32,000 bases of DNA, taken from IMG/VR virus record IMGVR_UViG_3300014059_000004; one strand, written 5' to 3'. Shown here one piece after another: positions 3,387 through 27,500 of this stretch (position 1 is its first letter; each line of letters begins with the position of its first letter). A program made the translations under genes and the position numbers. Below the pieces are notes generated by a model that was given only the letters and a program-made list of their open reading frames with translations, searched no databases and was not told the origin of the DNA. Source of the stretch: a virus.

Positions 3387-3791
3387 GTGATCATCAACCC
3401 ACCGCCCAAGAAGCTCACAATCAGAGAGTGGTTGGTGGGCTGCGTTCTGGCAAACCCTTCGATCACTGATGGCAGCGACGATGAGATTTCTGCTGCACGA
3501 CGAGCGCTATCGATAGCTGACGCTGCCATCGCGTTGCTCGAGGCATCACCATCGGGAAGCTTCGATGCTTCAGAAACGATCAAGTCGCCGCCACGAGTGA
3601 TCACTGCTGAGTATCCGGCGTTTGTCAACGATCAATTTCCAGAAGAAGAAGCACCTACGGCACCTGAGCACCCAGCGGGACGAGCGAGCATGAGACGGAA
3701 TTCCGCACCGGTGATAGTTGTCGATGATGCTATCGATTCAGTGAAAAGTTCGCGCTACTACATCACAGATATCAAGCCTGAAAAATTGTAG
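3387..3791 (+). CDS. hypothetical protein with N-terminal KKLTIRE leader
   Basis: 134-aa ORF, GTG start 3387, stop TAG 3789-3791; Ala/Ser/Pro/Glu-rich. Confidence 0.45.
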   Translation: MIINPPPKKLTIREWLVGCVLANPSITDGSDDEISAARRALSIADAAIALLEASPSGSFDASETIKSPPRVITAEYPAFVNDQFPEEEAPTAPEHPAGRASMRRNSAPVIVVDDAIDSVKSSRYYITDIKPEKL

Positions 3792-3862
3792 CAAAAAGTG
3801 AAGAGGCGGTGTACAGCCGCTGCCCAGAAGGTTATACTTACAACGTACCGCAACGGCGGTGC

Positions 3863-3936
3863 AGAGTACGATGTGGCGGGTAGCCCGGGAATCCCTGATA
3901 AGGAATCTGCGCAGAGTTCGAGTCTCTGGTACTCTA
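3863..3936 (+). pseudogene. degenerate tRNA-like cloverleaf (Ile GAT-type loop CTGATAA)
   Basis: 7-bp acceptor AGAGTAC/GTACTCT, T arm CAGAG-TTCGAGT-CTCTG, anticodon arm AATCC-CTGATAA-GGAAT with an A:A mismatch, but no convincing D stem; its 3' end plus trailer recurs at 6255-6278. Confidence 0.35.
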
Positions 3937-3970
3937 CGAAAGAAAAAAGAGTGTACATCTCGAGACGGGA

Positions 3971-3979
3971 TGGTATACT
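3971..3979 (+). promoter_or_regulatory. extended -10-like box TGGTATACT
   Basis: Member of the recurrent YGGTATAMT motif; lies in a 450-nt noncoding stretch. Confidence 0.35.
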
Positions 3980-4037
3980 TAAGCAAGAGTAAGTCATGTT
4001 CATCACGATAGCAAACAAGCAGAACGCTCAAAAGCAA

Positions 4038-4046
4038 TGGTATAAT
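4038..4046 (+). promoter_or_regulatory. extended -10 box TGGTATAAT (perfect TGn + TATAAT)
   Basis: Best match to a bacterial extended -10 in the window; no ORF immediately downstream, a structured region follows. Confidence 0.45.
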
Positions 4047-4049
4047 GCC

Positions 4050-4223
4050 GTTGCTGATAAAAATCGTTTCTGACGGGTGCTCACTGCCCCGTCCGCTTCC
4101 GGGGTAGAGAATGGTGATGAGAAGAAGCCAAATCTAGACCGACAGAAGTGCTGACGAAGTAGTGAGCTCCCCAAGCGGTATTAGTCCCGTAGGGCTCGGG
4201 GCCTGACTGTAAGTAAATTTACA
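4050..4223 (+). ncRNA. structured untranslated leader or small RNA upstream of the HNH gene
   Basis: Nested helices seen by eye: GACGGG/CCCGTC (about 4071-4098) and GAGC(T)CCC/GGGCTC (about 4164-4199); no ORF; shares the strings CCGGGG(T)AGA and GAT(G)AGAAGAAG..AAATC with 18698-18894. Confidence 0.3.
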
Positions 4224-4244
4224 GTGAACATAATATGTATTTGC

Positions 4245-4646
4245 ATGAAAGAAAATCGTTCATGCAAGGTGTGTCAGACTGAATTTGAAATTAGTAAGAA
4301 ACAACAAATTAAACGTGAAGTATGTAGCGCACGCTGTGCGCGAAAACTCCAATGGAAAGGAACTCATAACCCTCATTCAATTCTAGATTGTTCATCACGA
4401 ACAGTAACAAAAATTCTGAAGCGCATTGGGATGATGAAATGTTCAATGTGTGGATGGGATCAAGGTACGTGTGATGTACATCACATCAATGGCAAAAAAA
4501 TTGAAAATGCAAATTGTCATTCAAATCTAGCACTTGTGTGTCCAAATTGTCATCGATTGGCACATGAGAAGAAAATTTCCCCTAATGAACTAATTACATT
4601 TGAACAATTTGTTGGTGATAAATGGAAAGAAGGTTATTACGGGTAA
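4245..4646 (+). CDS. HNH homing endonuclease
   Basis: ATG 4245 inside ORF 4224..4646; N-terminal CKVC...CSARC zinc ribbon, CDVHHINGKK...NLALVCPNCHRLAH HNH core; AT-rich relative to flanks; embedded in a tRNA island. Confidence 0.75.
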   Translation: MKENRSCKVCQTEFEISKKQQIKREVCSARCARKLQWKGTHNPHSILDCSSRTVTKILKRIGMMKCSMCGWDQGTCDVHHINGKKIENANCHSNLALVCPNCHRLAHEKKISPNELITFEQFVGDKWKEGYYG

Positions 4647-23357: not shown

Positions 23358-23384
23358 GGTTCAAGTCCCTCCACGACCACTAAT
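23358..23384 (+). pseudogene. orphan tRNA 3' fragment (T arm plus acceptor 3' strand)
   Basis: GGGGG-TTCAAGT-CCCTC-CACGACC-A resembles the 3' end of the adjacent tRNA-Leu (GCGGG-TTCAAGT-CCCGC-TTTGACC-A); only about 20 nt lie upstream, so there is no room for a 5' half. Confidence 0.4.
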
Positions 23385-23457
23385 GCCGGGATAGCTCAGA
23401 GGCAAGAGCATTTGTTTCATACGCAAGTAATCGTGGGTTCGAATCCCACTCCCGGTA
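23385..23457 (+). tRNA. tRNA-Met: tRNA-Met or Ile2 (CAT)
   Basis: Acceptor GCCGGGA/TCCCGGT, D arm GCTC-AGAGGCAA-GAGC, arm TTTGT-TTCATAC-GCAAG, T arm GTGGG-TTCGAAT-CCCAC. Confidence 0.85.
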
Positions 23458-23872
23458 CCCAGCTCAACATATTGTGATCAAATTCCCAATGACAATTGGG
23501 ACAAAGCAAAAGAATATTATTTTCGGCGTTGATTACACTAATGGGTGTTTCTAGATCAAAACTAGAAAGTGGTTTGATGTGAGCATATTCAATGTGCTTA
23601 GAATAAGAGCAACGTTGACATGTTTGAGGTCGATGTTTATTTCGTTGATGCGTATGATGACGTACTTCATGAAATGTCAATGCGTTCCGAACACCATTCG
23701 ATTTATCAATGAAATATTGCAACGTACGACTATCAATAGTTGTACTACGGTTTCTGAACCGTTCTGAACATTCAATACAAAGACGCGATCGTCTTCCATT
23801 TTGATTGTAGTATGCTCTAGAACACTTAGTGCAATTTCGTTCTTTTGGTTTGTTCATAATAAACTTTATCAC
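23417..23872 (-). CDS. HNH homing endonuclease
   Basis: CTKCSRAYY...CIECS zinc ribbon, then HIEYAHIKPLS ... NAENNILLLCPNCHWEFDH; AT-rich; the last 41 nt overlap tRNA-Met on the opposite strand. Confidence 0.75.
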   Translation of the reverse strand: MIKFIMNKPKERNCTKCSRAYYNQNGRRSRLCIECSERFRNRSTTIDSRTLQYFIDKSNGVRNALTFHEVRHHTHQRNKHRPQTCQRCSYSKHIEYAHIKPLSSFDLETPISVINAENNILLLCPNCHWEFDHNMLSWVPGVGFEPTITCV

Positions 23873-23899
23873 ACATCAACGTGATGTTCAACCATTATA

Positions 23900-23943
23900 G
23901 CTGGCCTATCAGCCAGTAGGTGGTTCGACTCCACCCTCCAGCA
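23900..23943 (+). pseudogene. 5'-truncated tRNA remnant
   Basis: Hairpin CTGGC-CTATCA-GCCAG, then T arm GGTGG-TTCGACT-CCACC and CTCCAGC-A; no D arm or 5' acceptor; begins 28 nt from the HNH gene start. Confidence 0.4.
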
Positions 23944-24038: not shown

Positions 24039-24623
24039 ATGAAATTTTCAAAGAAAATCATCGGGCTAGCAGTTTGCTGCGCAGTTGCGCTTCTCTCGAA
24101 CACTGCTTCGGGTTCATTCGCAAAGAATCGTGATCCGCTGCAACGCGACAAGCAGCTAACGCCTCTATCAGACGTCCAGCTCGTCAGAGCTCTTCGAGAT
24201 TCTCACGTTGAGAACTTTGGGTTCGAGCCTTCGCCGGCGAAGCTTGCTATGGCTTGGGCTCAAGTGGCTCTAGAGAATGGCCAGGGAAAGTTCGTGTGGA
24301 ATCACAACCTTGGGAACATTGGCTCGCCGCCAGGGACTTCGCACGAATTCTACGTTCACTCATCGTACACTTCTTACAGATCGTTCGAAGGTTACCTTGA
24401 AGGCGGTGTAGCTTACTGGCGGACGGTGAGGCGCTGCGGATCGGCATGGGCCAACTTTGAAGTTGGAAATGCGACAGCGTCGGCTCTTTACCTCAAGAAC
24501 TGCGGTTACTACGGTGCTGACACAGATCAGTACGTTCGTGGAATGAATGAACTGTACGCTTACGCTCTAGGAAACGTGATTCCAAGAGAAGCTCGAGAGG
24601 CTACAAATGAGGGAAAAGATTGA
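24039..24623 (+). CDS. secreted peptidoglycan hydrolase, glucosaminidase (FlgJ/LytD-like) domain
   Basis: Signal peptide MKFSKKIIGLAVCCAVALLSNTASG; AMAWAQVALENGQGKFVWNHNLGNIG resembles the A.LESGWG ... NN.FGI glucosaminidase motif. Confidence 0.5.
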   Translation: MKFSKKIIGLAVCCAVALLSNTASGSFAKNRDPLQRDKQLTPLSDVQLVRALRDSHVENFGFEPSPAKLAMAWAQVALENGQGKFVWNHNLGNIGSPPGTSHEFYVHSSYTSYRSFEGYLEGGVAYWRTVRRCGSAWANFEVGNATASALYLKNCGYYGADTDQYVRGMNELYAYALGNVIPREAREATNEGKD

Positions 24624-25077
24624 GCGGTTCACAGATGAATTTGCATTCTTGTCAAACTTCTACCCGAGCACAATCTCCCACGAGGGAAAGCTCTGGCCAA
24701 CAGTTGAGCATGCCTACGCAGCCGAAAAAACTCTTGACCCGGAGGAAAAAGAGAGAATTCGTAAAGCAGAAACTCCAGGCCGCGCGAAATCTATGGGGAG
24801 AGCTGCTAGTCTACGCCCTGACTGGGATTCGATAAAGGTTGACGTGATGCGGAAGTTGGTGAAGGAAAAGTTCCGAAATCCTATCCTAAGAGAGTTGTTG
24901 ATCGCCACGGGTGATGCAGAGCTCATAGAAGGAAACAACTGGAACGATACTTTCTTCGGAGTCTGCAGGGGTCGTGGCCAAAATTGGTTGGGTCGAATCC
25001 TTGAAGAAGTTAGAGAAGAGATTCTTGCTGAAATTGCAGCAGATGAAGAAGTGAACTCTTCACTTCGCGCAAGGTAA
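24607..25077 (+). CDS. NADAR (YbiA / DUF1768) domain protein
   Basis: FLSNFYPS ... WPTVEHAYAAEK ... TPGRAKSMGR ... RPDWD ... LLIATGDAELIEGNNWNDTFFGV ... GQNWLGRIL: the family pattern as I remember it. Confidence 0.75.
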   Translation: MREKIERFTDEFAFLSNFYPSTISHEGKLWPTVEHAYAAEKTLDPEEKERIRKAETPGRAKSMGRAASLRPDWDSIKVDVMRKLVKEKFRNPILRELLIATGDAELIEGNNWNDTFFGVCRGRGQNWLGRILEEVREEILAEIAADEEVNSSLRAR

Positions 25078-25123
25078 GATGTAATTGAGCTGCACAATAG
25101 TAACCGTAGTAACCGTAAAAGTA

Positions 25124-25184
25124 GTGTAGAATATGCACGGATGGCTTTTAACCATCAGGCGGGAGTTAACTTCCCTCAGGTGAA
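25124..25184 (+). pseudogene. tRNA-Lys (TTT)-like pseudogene without an acceptor stem
   Basis: D arm GTGT-AGAATAT-GCAC, perfect arm GATGG-CTTTTAA-CCATC, degenerate T arm GGGAG-TTAACTT-CCCTC; flanks do not pair; preceded by the tandem AGTAACCGT x2 (25099-25116). Confidence 0.35.
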
Positions 25185-25198
25185 ATTGTAGCAGTGAT

Positions 25199-25272
25199 GT
25201 TTTCGTAGCTCAGTTGGATAGAGCATCGCATTCCTAACGCGAGGGTCGCAGGTTCGAATCCTGCCGGAAACG
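25199..25272 (+). tRNA. tRNA-Arg: tRNA-Arg (CCT)
   Basis: Acceptor GTTTTCG/CGGAAAC, D arm GCTC-AGTTGGATA-GAGC, arm TCGCA-TTCCTAA-CGCGA, T arm GCAGG-TTCGAAT-CCTGC. Confidence 0.9.
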
Positions 25273-25274
25273 CT

Positions 25275-25334
25275 AGTGACAAGTAACTGCAGCTGTTAAA
25301 TAATTGAAGAATTTAACATAAGGTGAACGTCACT
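25275..25334 (+). ncRNA. conserved inter-tRNA spacer element, copy 2
   Basis: Outer stem AGTGAC/GTCACT, 5' arm AAGTAACTGC, central hairpin GTTAAAT-AATTGAAGA-ATTTAAC, 3' arm GGTGAAC; compare 5853-5913. Confidence 0.4.
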
Positions 25335-25342
25335 AACAACAC

Positions 25343-25416
25343 GCCTCCGTGGCTCGAATGGATTAGGCAACTGACTTCTAATCAGTTTTACGTAGGTTCG
25401 AATCCTGCCGGAGGTG
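25343..25416 (+). tRNA. tRNA-Arg: tRNA-Arg (TCT)
   Basis: Acceptor GCCTCCG/CGGAGGT, arm ACTGA-CTTCTAA-TCAGT, T arm GTAGG-TTCGAAT-CCTGC. Confidence 0.9.
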
Positions 25417-25424
25417 CTACTGCT

Positions 25425-25598
25425 ATGAAGAAATTGACGATCATCTGCACGTTGCTAGCTGCCATCTGCAGTTCGTGCTACGCTGAGTGGGATCTTCCTA
25501 AGACTCCGCGGCGCGATCCTTGCACGGGCAAAGTAGAGAGCAAGTACGTATATGTAATTCCAGAGTGCCGTTACCCGGCACCGCAACCCAAGTACTGA
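25425..25598 (+). CDS. small secreted Cys-containing protein (57 aa)
   Basis: ATG 25425 in the frame of ORF 25323..25598 (the upstream part is tRNA): MKKLTIICTLLAAICSSCYAEWDLPK...; ATG is 8 nt after the tRNA end, with no SD. Confidence 0.45.
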   Translation: MKKLTIICTLLAAICSSCYAEWDLPKTPRRDPCTGKVESKYVYVIPECRYPAPQPKY

Positions 25599-25608
25599 AA
25601 GGCTACGC

Positions 25609-25659
25609 ATGAGCAACGTGAAGCAAGTGATCGTGGTGCGAACAGACCTAAAAGATTAA
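25609..25659 (+). pseudogene. remnant 5' end of a pth2 gene (16 codons)
   Basis: MSNVKQVIVVRTDLKD-stop; VKQVIVVR(T/N)DL is identical in protein to residues 6-16 of the Pth2 gene at 26375, but every codon differs. Confidence 0.55.
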
Positions 25660-26440
25660 TATGCAAATAGGTTCGGAAATCATATATACATAATGACGCT
25701 TGATGATAAACGCTTTTATGGCTATAAACATTGGACACTTGAGAAAATTCCTCGTTGTTTTTATGTAGGTAAAGGATTGATTCGTCGACCATACGACGGT
25801 CGACGAAGTAAAAAGTGGCATGCAGTTGTTAAAGCTTTTGGATTGAGAGTCGAAATTTGCATCGGACCTGTAACTAATAAAGAAGCAATCGATTGGGAAA
25901 TACTAACAATCAAAACTACGGGAACCTATAGCAAAAATTACATTTACAGAGGGAATGATGTAAGTTGCAATTTTACCCAGGGTGGTGATGGTGCTTCTGG
26001 GCGACAACTTTCTAGTGACGCTCGTCTAAAAATTGGTGATGCTCAACGAGGAAAAGAAAAATCGAGTGAAACACGTTTGAAAATTAGTGAATCACTCAAA
26101 GGTAGAAAATTGTCACTAGAAGTTCGACAAAAAATGAGTCTTATTCGTAAAAATAAGCAATTGTCTAAGACACACAAAGAAAATTTGTGGATTAGAAGAT
26201 CTAGAACATTTTCTGAACAACATCGTAAAAAGCTTAGTGAAGCTGCTAAGAAAAGAAAAGTATCACAAGAAACTTGTGCGCGAAGGAGCCTTTCTCTTAA
26301 AGGAAAATTTCATCATTGTAGTTTGTGTGGGTTGATCGGTCATAATCGTTTGTCGTGTGATTTCAAAGTTGAATATGAAAAAATTTGAAGTTAAACAGGT
26401 AATAGTTGTAAGAAACGATCTTGGAATGAGAAAAGGCAAG
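25656..26440 (+). mobile_element. GIY-YIG homing-endonuclease cassette carrying a replacement 5' end for pth2
   Basis: AT-rich block bounded by the truncated pth2 remnant on the left and by the return to normal composition about 65 nt into the Pth2 ORF on the right; boundaries approximate. Confidence 0.45.
25693..26388 (+). CDS. GIY-YIG family homing endonuclease with NUMOD3 repeats and a C-terminal CCHC knuckle
   Basis: FYGYKH ... CFYVGKG ... R ... E ... N layout; five or six S.E.R.K(I/M)S..(K/R)G-type repeats (for example SSETRLKISESLKGRK); HHCSLCGLIGHNRLSC = CX2CX4HX4C. Confidence 0.7.
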   Translation: MTLDDKRFYGYKHWTLEKIPRCFYVGKGLIRRPYDGRRSKKWHAVVKAFGLRVEICIGPVTNKEAIDWEILTIKTTGTYSKNYIYRGNDVSCNFTQGGDGASGRQLSSDARLKIGDAQRGKEKSSETRLKISESLKGRKLSLEVRQKMSLIRKNKQLSKTHKENLWIRRSRTFSEQHRKKLSEAAKKRKVSQETCARRSLSLKGKFHHCSLCGLIGHNRLSCDFKVEYEKI

Positions 26441-26887
26441 ATAGCTGCGCAAGTTGCTCATGCATCGATGCAGTTCCTGCTCGATGCGAATCAGTCTGAT
26501 TCTTTCGGTGAGTTGCATGTGGTGCTGACGCCCGAAGAGATCGAATGGTTGAACGGATCATTCACCAAGATTGTCGTAGGTGTGGATTCAGAGAACGTTT
26601 TGAACGAGCTCGTCCTTCGAGCTAAGATGTCAGACATCACTGTCTTCCAGATCGTTGATTCTGGCAAGACTGAATTCAATGGAGTTCCAACGTTGACTTG
26701 CGCAGCATTTGGACCAAACGATGCTGCAGACATCGATAAGATCACTGGTCATCTAAAACTCATCTTACAACGGGCGCATAGCTTAGTGGCTAAAGCATTT
26801 GGTCTACACCCAAATTATCGGGGGTTCGAGTCCCTCTGCGCCTACAGTGGAAACATGCTCGAGAGGCTGAAGAGATCGGTTTGCTAA
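26375..26887 (+). CDS. pth2: peptidyl-tRNA hydrolase, Pth2 (archaeal/eukaryotic) type; ORF reads through tRNA-Val
   Basis: ATG 26375 inside ORF 26357..26887; VIVVRNDLGMRKGKIAAQVAHAS ... KIVVGV ... IVDSGKTEF ... PTLTCAAFGP ... ITGHLKLI; homology should end near 26765, but no stop occurs until 26885-26887. Confidence 0.75.
   Translation: MKKFEVKQVIVVRNDLGMRKGKIAAQVAHASMQFLLDANQSDSFGELHVVLTPEEIEWLNGSFTKIVVGVDSENVLNELVLRAKMSDITVFQIVDSGKTEFNGVPTLTCAAFGPNDAADIDKITGHLKLILQRAHSLVAKAFGLHPNYRGFESLCAYSGNMLERLKRSVC
26772..26844 (+). tRNA. tRNA-Val: tRNA-Val (TAC) with C33
   Basis: Acceptor GGGCGCA/TGCGCCT, D arm GCTT-AGTGGCTA-AAGC, arm TTTGG-TCTACAC-CCAAA, T arm GGGGG-TTCGAGT-CCCTC. Confidence 0.8.
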
Positions 26888-26938
26888 ACCGAAGGCCCCG
26901 AAAGGGGTCCATGGGTTCGAATCCCATTGTTTCCTCCA
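26849..26938 (+). tRNA. tRNA-Ser: tRNA-Ser (GCT), long variable arm, CCA encoded
   Basis: Acceptor GGAAACA/TGTTTCC, D arm CTC-GAGAGGCTGAA-GAG, arm TCGGT-TTGCTAA-ACCGA, variable AGGCCCCGAAAGGGGTCC, T arm ATGGG-TTCGAAT-CCCAT, T-CCA. Confidence 0.9.
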
Positions 26939-26939
26939 A

Positions 26940-27203
26940 ATGATTGTTCCTTGCCCGAATTGCAAACGTCAAGTAACGTTGAACAGCGAACCATCTCGAG
27001 GACCCATCATTGATGGTTCAGAGTGCTGGTTGTGCTTGAAGTGCCCGGCGACGGTGTGCGTCATGTGTTACCTTGACCACACTTCAGAGAAGCATAGGGA
27101 TTGGATGGAAGGCAAAGAGAAGAAAAAGAAGAAATTAGGAAGGTTTCGCACATTGGCAAGTCAGACAGCTTCGAACTCTGTCGAACATAGTATTATGTTC
27201 TGA
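26940..27203 (+). CDS. zinc-ribbon protein; ORF runs into tRNA-Ser(CGA)
   Basis: ATG 2 nt after the CCA of the preceding tRNA; CPNC ... CWLC ... C..C.MC Cys pairs, Lys-rich tail; no stop before the tRNA at 27138. Confidence 0.5.
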   Translation: MIVPCPNCKRQVTLNSEPSRGPIIDGSECWLCLKCPATVCVMCYLDHTSEKHRDWMEGKEKKKKKLGRFRTLASQTASNSVEHSIMF

Positions 27204-27226
27204 GCGTTCAACTCGCTCACCTTCCT
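27138..27226 (+). tRNA. tRNA-Ser: tRNA-Ser (CGA), long variable arm, weak D stem
   Basis: Acceptor GGAAGGT/ACCTTCC, arm ACAGC-TTCGAAC-TCTGT (31:39 C:T), 7-bp variable hairpin GAACATA-GTAT-TATGTTC, T arm GAGCG-TTCAACT-CGCTC. Confidence 0.6.
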
Positions 27227-27245
27227 CTAACGCCGTAATTACTAC

Positions 27246-27500
27246 ATGTGCTACACTTGCATGCTCAACAATCCGCTTGCGGTCTCTGATGATTCAACTT
27301 CACCGAGGCGCAAGCGTCAACGATTGCTAGAGATCAAGCAGATCTTCCTCACGATGGAAGGCGCCACACCATGTGCGTACGGGGCAGAAGCGCTAGCAGC
27401 TCTTAAGGATGAACAATACAGGCTTTCTAGAGAACTATTACACGGTAAGATGGCCGAGTGGACGAAGGCAGCTGCTTGGAAAGCAGTCGGGGTGGGTTAA
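27246..27500 (+). CDS. hypothetical protein; ORF runs into tRNA-Ser(GGA)
   Basis: 84-aa ORF, ATG 27246; codons from 27444 onward are tRNA sequence. Confidence 0.4.
   Translation: MCYTCMLNNPLAVSDDSTSPRRKRQRLLEIKQIFLTMEGATPCAYGAEALAALKDEQYRLSRELLHGKMAEWTKAAAWKAVGVG

Follow-up and report, generated by a model that had tools for sequence, protein, structure and literature searches.

The window, a 32,000-nucleotide stretch of viral DNA (IMG/VR record IMGVR_UViG_3300014059_000004), contains a pth2 gene whose original start survives as a 16-codon stump, separated from the rest of the gene by a 793-bp cassette that carries an endonuclease gene and a second, foreign pth2 start. The explanation that we favour, and consider probable, is that a free-standing GIY-YIG homing endonuclease from a family specialised on pth2 entered this gene through a one-sided, illegitimate event and then spread by intronless homing.

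The source is an uncultured jumbo (giant) phage in which pth2 is interrupted by a selfish endonuclease cassette. The locus sits in a tRNA array (39 tRNA genes in the window), with tRNA-Arg(tct) at 25343–25417 as its upstream neighbour in the tRNA scan; all features given here lie on the plus strand. The stump ORF (25609–25659) reads MSNVKQVIVVRTDLKD followed by a stop. Its bases 25609–25652 are the resident pth2 start, that is, codons 1–14 and two bases of codon 15, and bases 25653–25659 belong to the cassette, completing a Lys codon and adding an Asp codon and TAA (25657–25659). The cassette (25653–26445) opens with a 40-nt leader (25653–25692, read directly from the sequence), which contains a mini-ORF of ten codons that begins one base after the stump stop (ATG at 25661) and ends in TAATG on the endonuclease start (TAA at 25691–25693). 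The free-standing endonuclease gene (25693–26388, 231 amino acids; Pfam NUMOD3, alignment and AF2 model) is followed by the foreign pth2 5′ segment (26375–26445, codons 1–24, MKKFEVKQVIVVRNDLGMRKGKIA; alignment and GC3), which begins MKKFEVKQVIVVRNDLGMRKGK at an ATG at 26375 and shares its first 14 nt with the end of the endonuclease ORF. GC content is about 0.29–0.42 across 25650–26450, compared with about 0.45–0.55 in the flanks.

Six close relatives that lack the insert (L011–L016; flanks 89–98% identical) each have a single uninterrupted pth2 (P0001, P0002) that begins MSNVKQVIVVRTDLNMRKGK, and this start is the stump sequence. Because the first 44 nt of the stump are identical, at 44 of 44 positions in the alignment, to the 5′ end of the intact pth2 of one of them (L013), the similarity is not due to chance. 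A preliminary description of the locus, made from the sequence alone, had pointed to this 16-codon ORF with a pth2-like start upstream of the endonuclease gene, had proposed to align the junctions with relatives in which pth2 is uninterrupted, and had regarded both copies in endonuclease-free relatives, or loss of the stump similarity on formal alignment, as evidence against its reading. The ORF is present, the relatives show the empty site with one pth2 each, and the alignment holds; the earlier interpretation is largely supported.

BLAST and alignment of the junctions define the cassette as the segment that is common to all insert-bearing contigs and absent from the insert-free relatives. 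The window matches the latter up to 25652 and again from about 26446. The left junction is sharp (25652/25653) and follows the second base of resident codon 15, AAC (Asn). The right junction lies between 26445 and 26458, and a variable-site matrix places the crossover zone (26446–26458) inside the conserved coding stretch for AAQVAHA. Junctions are identical in the 18 insert-bearing contigs. Between them the cassette replaces 21 resident bases, CATGCGCAAAGGTAAATTTGG (resident codons 15–22), a 21-mer that occurs nowhere in the window even when three mismatches are allowed and from which the recoded pth2 copy differs at 8 of 21 positions. The preliminary description had the insertion fall after a DLK codon of the resident gene; the insert does lie within the resident pth2 at this point, but it replaces sequence, its junction is inside the Asn codon, and the Lys-Asp-stop that ends the stump, Lys included, is a product of the left junction.

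The chimeric pth2 ORF (26375–26887; Pfam, ORF list and tRNA calls) is intact as a predicted coding sequence. It matches PF01981 at 5.7e-30 over profile positions 1–115 of 115, a full-length PTH2 domain with the conserved motifs GK..AQ.AHA and D.G.TE, and the predicted protein shows 94% identity to P0001 and P0002, the uninterrupted versions, across 96% of its length. The domain ends at about 26767, abutting tRNA-Val(tac) (26772–26845, tRNA scan); there is no stop before this tRNA gene, and the frame continues to a TAA at 26885–26887 inside tRNA-Ser. In GC3 the foreign 5′ segment (0.25) is close to the endonuclease gene (0.22) and well below the remainder of pth2 (0.51); overall GC is 0.31 in the segment and 0.36 in the endonuclease gene, bearing out the earlier remark that the second start is AT-rich like the endonuclease.

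That remark was accompanied by the claim that the shared VKQVIVVR(T/N)DL is encoded differently at every position. Compared with the stump of the window, 11 of 11 codons do differ (ten synonymously and one as T/N), but this is limited to that stump haplotype and fails as a general rule: compared with the L014 allele, 7 of 10 synonymous codons differ. Because 52 pairs of unrelated pth2 alleles differ on average at 71% of synonymous codons, and 3 of the 52 at every codon, complete recoding falls within ordinary saturated divergence, and we dropped selected recoding as an explanation. Searches for the donor of the segment returned nothing in an exact-peptide scan of viral contigs with Pth2, only four short unrelated fragments for a 40-amino-acid N-terminal query, and five contigs that match VRNDLGMRKGK as a degenerate DNA pattern, all unrelated to the window and lacking the endonuclease. 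In 50,697 phage records searched for cultured relatives at the DNA and protein levels, only tRNA matches and endonucleases or RNA ligases at no more than 38% identity were found.

The endonuclease combines a divergent GIY-YIG nuclease domain with a separate DNA-binding module made of NUMOD3 repeats and a C-terminal CX2CX4HX5C knuckle. Pfam reports NUMOD3 (1.9e-8) and no other family for the 231-amino-acid protein; the GIY-YIG model PF01541 does not match it directly, and matches 5 of 33 aligned homologues, none of which is from the pth2-linked clade. Alignment with the distant homologues that carry PF01541 shows Y11, G26, E69 and N93 to be invariant and R32 to be at least 90% conserved. The AF2 model (pLDDT 90.7) has helical repeats over residues 108–202, and its seven top-ranked Foldseek matches in the PDB belong without exception to GIY-YIG nucleases; five are UvrC N-terminal domain structures, and the other two are chains of the PD-T4-3 endonuclease entry 9u75. 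The best of these (1yd5) has a probability of 0.97 and a TM score of 0.50 on the target, with E-values of the matches only 0.02–0.2. A PDB sequence profile search with the endonuclease alignment gave no GIY-YIG chain, only spurious matches to peptidoglycan-recognition proteins. As judged from conserved residues and predicted fold, the protein belongs to a divergent GIY-YIG subfamily.

All nine of its nearest relatives (P0122–P0129; 46–58% identity) are encoded directly upstream of a PTH2 gene, the start of which is overlapped by the endonuclease gene in eight of the nine, and the C-terminal Cys/His knuckle is common to the closest of them (P0122–P0127). These loci come from unrelated genomes of 43–66% GC, and at every locus the endonuclease gene is lower in GC than its flanks. 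The first 21–25 codons of the linked pth2 genes resemble the endonuclease in composition, unlike 25 endonuclease-free controls: the difference in GC3 between the 5′ segment and the remainder of pth2 (segment minus remainder) has a mean of −0.18 in the nine linked alleles and +0.04 in the controls (Mann–Whitney, p = 2e-4). At the junction codon, 20 of 28 endonuclease-free alleles encode Asn, compared with 2 of 9 linked alleles (p = 0.017–0.02). More distant relatives in viral contigs (L001–L010; 30–53% identity, nuclease domain only) never adjoin pth2. In the sequences compared, the association is confined to the full-length clade, a previously undescribed group of endonucleases that appears to be dedicated to pth2. 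The preliminary description had taken the mobile unit to comprise the endonuclease gene and a diverged 5′ piece of pth2, and this stands: 25653–26445, including the 24 foreign codons, is shared by 18 of 18 insert-bearing contigs, and the family-wide GC3 agrees. Its further points, that the insert destroys the target site, keeps Pth2 functional and leaves a dead stump, are reasonable as predictions.

It is possible, although on balance unlikely, that the stump is not dead and serves as a left homology arm for homing or as an upstream ORF that feeds ribosomes through the abutting reading frames, a role that would be compatible with our main explanation. The ORFs form a chain that runs from the stump TAA, across one base, through the mini-ORF to the endonuclease gene and, by the overlap, into pth2, and a Shine–Dalgarno sequence is missing from both the endonuclease start and the new pth2 start; variation in the stump is exclusively synonymous. 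The stump polymorphisms (25635, 25638 and 25647) are, however, the same variants as in the insert-free alleles, and therefore reflect recombination and young age rather than selection. A clear stump is also missing from seven of the nine family members, with possible relics upstream of the endonuclease in L029 and L042. Local RNA folds around the endonuclease and pth2 starts are unremarkable (z-scores of 0.7 and 0.1), a 10-bp hairpin that puts the pth2 AUG in its loop is not significant, and a scan for promoter and terminator consensus sequences did no better than shuffled sequence. The cassette leader may itself be a relic of an older stump; it has a weak similarity to the endonuclease leader of L029 (score of 11, shuffle p = 0.035). 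Direct comparison of the leader with pth2 is not significant (p = 0.94), and we rejected it as a decayed pth2 stump, the resemblance to the L029 leader being only marginal.

Population data argue that the cassette is mobile. It is present or absent at one fixed site among near-identical genomes, as expected of a mobile homing element. Across the 18 insert-bearing contigs, some of which may be one strain sampled repeatedly, it has 2 segregating sites in 793 (π = 0.0008), whereas the flanks have π of 0.007–0.037, and this 10–45-fold difference in diversity sets in precisely at the edges of the cassette. At least four flank haplotypes carry the cassette, some of them identical to insert-free haplotypes, and beyond 26458 three insert-bearing contigs (L017, L025 and L026) carry the haplotype of the insert-free relatives. 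A near-invariant cassette on diverse flank haplotypes points to recent spread through the phage population, probably by homing.

A passenger cassette would give some of the same patterns: an inactive or irrelevant endonuclease gene and a pth2 5′ end could have entered once, illegitimately, and spread by homologous recombination, hitch-hiking or a sweep without homing. The lack of obvious ribosome-binding sites at the endonuclease and new pth2 starts fits this account, and phage populations recombine heavily in any case, as the mosaic 3′ half of pth2 illustrates; a second, independent insertion/deletion polymorphism lies 2 kb upstream. Yet the endonuclease ORF is intact in 18 of 18 contigs, which show one amino-acid variant among them and retain every catalytic residue, the drop in diversity coincides with the borders of the cassette, and the family has held its position beside pth2 despite its divergence and its unrelated genomes, which is the behaviour of a site-specific element. 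We therefore give the passenger account only a slim chance. Some observations do count against homing as the main explanation, among them the missing direct match to GIY-YIG models and the possible resampling of strains. At 25647, which is six bases from the junction, both states of a synonymous polymorphism occur among the insert-bearing contigs, so that very short conversion tracts or recurrent mutation are required. In addition, several relatives have a strong Shine–Dalgarno sequence at the pth2 start, whereas the new start in the window, from which the chimeric gene would be expressed, has none that is recognisable.

If the insert were removed from the RNA or the protein, through a group I intron with an endonuclease ORF, an intein or translational bypassing, the stump would be exon 1. 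Joining AAA (25651–25653) to ATG AGA AAA GGC (26426) does give an in-frame ...VVRTDLK-MRKGK... like that of a normal Pth2, but an Rfam scan of 24500–27500 found tRNAs and chance matches only, and no group I or II intron model at E ≤ 1. Outside the endonuclease ORF the cassette has only 40 nt plus about 57 nt, so a ribozyme core cannot fit; an intein is excluded because the stump ends in a stop codon and the endonuclease ORF lies in a different frame with its own start. The downstream copy moreover has its own ATG and a complete N terminus, as in all nine relatives in which the endonuclease gene precedes pth2, and removal is very improbable. A tandem duplication that copied the pth2 start locally within this lineage, with the copies then diverging and an endonuclease gene landing between them later, would account for the same 11 codons occurring twice in direct orientation, but is scarcely tenable given that insert-free relatives at 97–98% identity have one copy only and that the second copy is 64% identical at the DNA level, whereas the flanks are 98% identical, has foreign GC3 and most closely matches the pth2 allele linked to the endonuclease in an unrelated genome (L027, 88% over 33 nt).

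Under one-sided acquisition followed by homing, the history of the locus may have run as follows. Members of the family would cut endonuclease-free pth2 in its conserved 5′ coding region, around codons 15–24 (DL-N-MRKGK..AQ); in the insert-free allele the predicted cut would lie within or adjoining CTAAAC/ATGCGCAAAGGTAAATTTGG. Repair from an endonuclease-bearing genome would then copy the endonuclease gene and the adjoining first 24 or so codons of pth2. The donor was putatively a more AT-rich phage in which the sequence upstream of the endonuclease gene had no homologue in the recipient, and because of this only the right break end could be resolved by homologous recombination, inside the AAQVAHA-coding stretch; the left end would have been joined illegitimately inside codon 15, which amounts to one-sided homing. 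The product is the arrangement seen in the window, in the order 16-codon stump, 40-nt leader, endonuclease gene, foreign pth2 5′ end and resident pth2 body. Such an allele would have homology on both sides (the stump and upstream sequence on the left, the pth2 body on the right) and could spread through the population by ordinary intronless homing. The sequences themselves show the empty site, the junctions, the foreign composition, an intact PTH2 domain, the near-invariant cassette in diverse flanks and the link of the family to pth2 and its 5′ segment; we infer the endonuclease activity, the cut position, the immunity of both partial copies and the one-sided repair pathway.

A broader idea, which we put forward tentatively and with more doubt than confidence, is that the family is a natural home-and-rescue drive. 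An endonuclease gene whose stop overlaps the start of a cleavage-immune replacement for the first 24 or so codons of its target would form the obligate mobile unit. This would permit insertion in conserved coding sequence without an intron or intein, and each transfer to another phage lineage would leave a stump that later decays, of which the possible relics in L029 and L042 would be examples.

The closest known systems are the free-standing GIY-YIG Seg endonucleases of T4-like phages, which move by 'intronless homing', and in particular SegB, which resides in the T4 tRNA gene cluster (PMC2330249, PMC2988022). The window element resembles them in joining a GIY-YIG nuclease to a separate DNA-binding region, in being neither intron nor intein, and in its place in a phage tRNA region, as well as in its presence or absence among close relatives, the co-conversion of flanks and an own allele that differs at the presumed target. 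It departs from them in that its target is pth2 rather than a tRNA gene or another T4 gene, its catalytic domain is too divergent for PF01541, and its cleavage is predicted; furthermore, Seg genes are normally intergenic, whereas the left border of this element falls within the coding sequence of the target, of which a stump remains. The proposed entry matches an experiment in T4, in which one-sided homing gave illegitimate junctions at microhomology (Parker, Belisle and Belfort 1999, reviewed in PMC2988022). There too, homology was present on one side of the break only and the other junction had little or none, a route proposed for the invasion of new genomes; that case was a laboratory construct with a group I intron, whereas ours concerns a natural, free-standing gene that then spread in a wild population. 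Endonuclease insertions also split phage genes, as with mobE in nrdA of Aeromonas phage Aeh1 and mobA in T4 gene 39/60 (PMC2988022). These share with the window a free-standing endonuclease gene inside a coding region that is single in relatives, and retention of the host function (predicted here), but both of their gene halves are needed and reassemble as subunits, whereas our upstream piece is redundant because the cassette brings a replacement.

The nearest parallel to the gene fusion is the hybrid atp6 gene with a GIY-YIG ORF in Allomyces macrogynus mitochondria (Paquin, Laforest and Lang 1994, PNAS 91:11807; discussed in PMC4019555); duplicated C termini adjoin endonuclease genes in fungal atp6, cox2 and rps3. 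As in Allomyces, a GIY-YIG gene arrived with a foreign piece of its target gene that was fused in frame and took over the function (predicted here). The fungal cases replace the 3′ end of a mitochondrial gene, whereas the window replaces the 5′ end of a phage gene, including the start codon, with the endonuclease stop overlapping the new start. In Allomyces, the displaced resident 3′ piece reportedly survives beside the hybrid gene. The window has all the marks of such a hybrid: an in-frame foreign segment, an adjoining endonuclease gene and a displaced resident segment left behind.

Annotation calls for caution here: a short ORF that precedes an endonuclease gene can be a gene stump, and genes beside such elements may have foreign 5′ ends. 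The locus captures, in nature, a phage gene before and after invasion by a homing endonuclease, with empty sites, filled sites and recombinant flanks from wild populations. It narrows the probable target to about 20–30 bp and suggests the Asn codon between DL and MRKGK as a position of resistance. The locus further illustrates a probable way for a free-standing endonuclease to pass between phages with nothing but the target gene in common, by an exchange that is homologous on one side and illegitimate on the other, the route proposed from the T4 constructs. Because the element carries a gene start of its own, the host gene stays whole, a logic that parallels engineered rescue-type gene drives. 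If the home-and-rescue idea is true, such elements would represent a third general solution, beside introns and inteins, to the invasion of essential coding DNA, and cleave-and-rescue gene drives would be their engineered equivalent.

The stump of the old pth2 start (25609–25659, plus strand) reads MSNVKQVIVVRTDLKD to a stop codon and is followed by a 231-codon endonuclease open reading frame (ORF; 25693–26388, plus strand), which overlaps by 14 nt the PTH2 gene that begins MKKFEVKQVIVVRNDLGMRKGK (ATG at 26375, plus strand). This layout was re-read in the sequence and agrees with the preliminary description, as does the codon comparison, in which all 11 codons shared by the stump and the second pth2 start differ. 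GC content is approximately 0.29–0.42 over 25650–26450, compared with approximately 0.45–0.55 on both flanks. The locus is flanked by tRNA-Arg(tct) and tRNA-Val(tac) in a dense array of tRNA genes, of which the 32-kb window has 39, and the window also codes for an Rnl1-like RNA ligase, an ATP-dependent ligase, NADAR and PTH2. Contigs with the same endonuclease protein reach approximately 314 kb, and no close relative was found among cultured phages; the source is an uncultured jumbo phage that has a large module for translation and RNA repair.

A search with the Pth2 protein returned two clusters of uninterrupted Pth2 (P0001 and P0002; 94% identity, 96% of the query length), the N terminus of which, MSNVKQVIVVRTDLNMRKGK, is the stump sequence continued. 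The DNA of the insert-free relatives (contigs L011–L016) is 89–98% identical to the window and has the same gene order (194-amino-acid ORF, NADAR, tRNAs, pth2, tRNAs, HNH-like ORF and Rnl1-like RNA ligase), without the endonuclease gene and with a single, uninterrupted pth2. The two outcomes named beforehand as contradicting an insertion, both copies in endonuclease-free relatives and loss of the stump similarity on alignment, are thus not what we find: these relatives carry one pth2, and the similarity stays. The window is identical to L013 from the ATG to ...GAC CTA AA (25652) and diverges thereafter, with homology returning at approximately 26446. In the exchange, 21 resident bases (CATGCGCAAAGGTAAATTTGG, codons 15–22) gave way to 793 bases (25653–26445), and the lost 21-mer does not occur in the window, with up to three mismatches allowed. 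Insertion had been placed after a DLK codon of the resident gene; the junction in fact falls inside codon 15, which in the resident gene is AAC (Asn), and Lys-Asp-stop is a product of the junction.

An assembly error is excluded, as independent samples yielded 18 contigs with this structure. Nor is the insert an intron (the region has no match to any intron model at E ≤ 1, and less than 100 nt of the cassette lies outside the ORF) or an intein, because the stump terminates at a stop codon and the endonuclease ORF is in another frame. Local duplication of the pth2 start is rejected by the DNA identity between the two starts, 64% compared with 98% between the flanks and their relatives; at the DNA level the second start is closest to a pth2 start linked to an endonuclease gene in an unrelated contig, L027 (88% over 33 nt). 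The complete divergence of the 11 codons is no sign of selected recoding: unrelated pth2 alleles differ at a mean of 71% of same-amino-acid codons, and 3 of 52 unrelated pairs differ at every one.

Pfam recognizes only NUMOD3 repeats in the 231-amino-acid protein, with no direct match to the GIY-YIG model, and a profile search of PDB sequences with the endonuclease alignment gave nothing relevant. In that alignment (32 homologues, including distant ones with a Pfam GIY-YIG domain), the Tyr of GIY, the Gly of YIG, the catalytic Glu and Asn are invariant and the Arg nearly so. The AlphaFold model built from it is confident (pLDDT 90.7), with an N-terminal domain of beta-beta-alpha-beta-alpha topology and helical repeats after it. 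The seven PDB entries that Foldseek ranks closest to the model, with modest E-values, are all GIY-YIG nuclease entries: five UvrC N-terminal domain structures (probability of at most 0.97) and two chains from the entry for the PD-T4-3 restriction endonuclease. Given this fold and the catalytic residues, we treat the protein as a predicted divergent GIY-YIG endonuclease.

Its nine closest relatives (P0122–P0129; 46–58% identity) come from unrelated genomes of 43–66% GC, one on a contig of approximately 340 kb. At all nine representative loci (L027, L028, L029, L030, L032, L035, L042 and L043, with L041 from the Pfam check), the endonuclease gene lies directly upstream of a PTH2 gene, the start of which it overlaps by 1–32 nt in eight (the gene caller's pth2 start in L035 is GTG, not ATG); sister contigs L031, L033 and L034 have the same gene order. 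A tRNA gene often precedes the endonuclease gene. Distant relatives that have only the nuclease domain in common are not beside pth2. The endonuclease gene is AT-richer than its surroundings at every locus, and in eight of nine the third-position GC content (GC3) of pth2 is lower in codons 1 to 21–25, up to the AQVAHA motif, than in the rest of the gene (mean difference −0.18). Endonuclease-free viral pth2 controls (n = 25) average +0.04 (s.d. 0.11), with none at −0.18 (Mann–Whitney P = 2 × 10−4). This contrast bears out the proposal that the travelling unit combines the endonuclease gene with the 5′ segment of pth2, and the right border of the unit in the family coincides with that in the window.

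The resident sequence lost on insertion is limited to codons 15–22, and both cassette borders fall inside codons 15–26. Asn at the left-junction residue, between DL and MRKGK, occurs in 20 of 28 endonuclease-free alleles compared with 2 of 9 linked ones (P = 0.017; P = 0.022 with L011, L013 and L014, of the phage group of the window, counted once). These data point to probable recognition or cleavage around CTN AAC ATG CGN AAR GG.

The new pth2 start at 26375 lacks a Shine–Dalgarno sequence; several relatives have a strong one. We speculate that the abutting and overlapping chain of stump, 10-codon mini-ORF (25661–25693), endonuclease gene and pth2 could hand on ribosomes. Local RNA folds at the locus are unremarkable. 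A 10-bp inverted repeat at 26358–26393 (GATTTCAAAG...TTTGAAGTT) puts the new pth2 AUG in a hairpin loop, the overall fold stability being no better than that of shuffled sequence. Farther downstream (26750–26887), no stop codon closes pth2 where the PTH2 domain ends (...HLKLILQ); the frame runs through tRNA-Val (26772–26845) to a TAA at 26885–26887, which lies in the tRNA-Ser(gct) anticodon loop, and the frame extends likewise in insert-free P0001 (174 amino acids) and P0002 (187 amino acids). Excision of the tRNAs from a shared transcript would leave the pth2 message without a stop codon, a curious outcome for a peptidyl-tRNA-recycling enzyme.

Two sites of the 793-bp cassette segregate among the 18 contigs that carry it (π = 0.0008); one gives the S80N endonuclease variant (P0237). 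Sequence next to the cassette is far more diverse, with π at 0.023 for the stump, 0.032 for the pth2 body, 0.037 farther downstream and 0.007–0.011 upstream, and the flanks represent several haplotypes. Upstream, L020 and L025 are of the insert-free L014/L016 type; downstream, from 26458 on, L017, L025 and L026 are of the insert-free L013 type; and L018 and L021–L023 have mosaic flanks. Crossovers fall within a few bases of the cassette borders. An invariant element, diverse recombinant flanks and border crossovers are the footprint expected of homing, and provide evidence that the cassette is probably mobile now or was recently. A recent sweep with recombination, instead of homing, would look similar.

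The pth2 body beside the cassette (26446–26771, and its homologues in L017–L026) is strongly mosaic, with blocks of 5–30 linked variants switching haplotype. None of the insert-free sequences sampled shares the haplotype that the window has there, which may reflect a long co-conversion tract or an unsampled lineage. Independently of the pth2 cassette, a 527-bp segment (23383–23909) is polymorphic for presence: it occurs in L014 and L017 and is replaced by 44 bp in L011, L015, L018, L020 and L044. It holds a tRNA-Met gene (23384–23461) overlapped by an HNH_2 endonuclease ORF (23417–23872, minus strand), and appears to be another endonuclease cassette, moving with a tRNA gene. Insert-free L011 also has a canonical GIY-YIG gene (3684–4637, minus strand; 317 amino acids, PF01541) several kilobases upstream of pth2. 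This part of the genome appears to be a hot spot of endonuclease genes.

At the sequence level, the locus is well documented. The element appears to work like the free-standing Seg endonucleases of the T4 type, of which SegB likewise lies in a tRNA cluster (PMC2330249, PMC2988022), and one-sided illegitimate homing matches the acquisition of the cassette. The architecture mirrors that of the mitochondrial atp6 hybrid gene of Allomyces, in which a GIY-YIG ORF came with a foreign gene end (discussed in PMC4019555); here the opposite gene end is replaced, and in a phage. Neither a pth2-directed endonuclease nor such an architecture in phages is described in the literature searched, and neither was found among the cultured phage genomes searched.

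A clear stump is absent from most family members, which makes an endonuclease gene preceding pth2 the usual arrangement. We propose that a break in a recipient pth2 would be repaired from such an allele: the right end would find homology in the donor pth2 body, and the left end, for which the donor has no homologous sequence upstream of its endonuclease gene, would be joined illegitimately, leaving a stump as the expected remnant. Once finished, the allele would have homology on both sides and could spread by ordinary homing, which fits an invariant cassette in diverse flanks. In T4 experiments, one-sided repair had exactly the same outcome, with junctions at microhomology, and was proposed as a route to new sites (reviewed in PMC2988022). 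An N-terminal protein query and a degenerate DNA pattern search did not find the cassette donor.

Older insertions may have left similar traces. In L029, which has the closest endonuclease relative, a stretch just before the endonuclease gene (449–485) matches codons 12–20 of insert-free-type pth2 at 20 of 25 nt (shuffle P = 0.01–0.03). In L042, approximately 70 nt upstream of the gene (2425–2500) align, with gaps, to pth2 codons 2–24 (P = 0.004). They now encode the C-terminal tail of the preceding ORF, called in sister contig L041 as a phosphoesterase of 253 amino acids (Pfam Metallophos domain, residues 4–188) and in L042 as an ORF of only 200 amino acids, with no Pfam match. The 40-nt leader of the window cassette (25653–25692) weakly resembles the L029 leader (P = 0.035) and has no significant resemblance to pth2. 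These resemblances are suggestive only; the L029 and L042 sequences may be decayed stumps of earlier insertions. If so, stumps would be a regular by-product of jumps between lineages.
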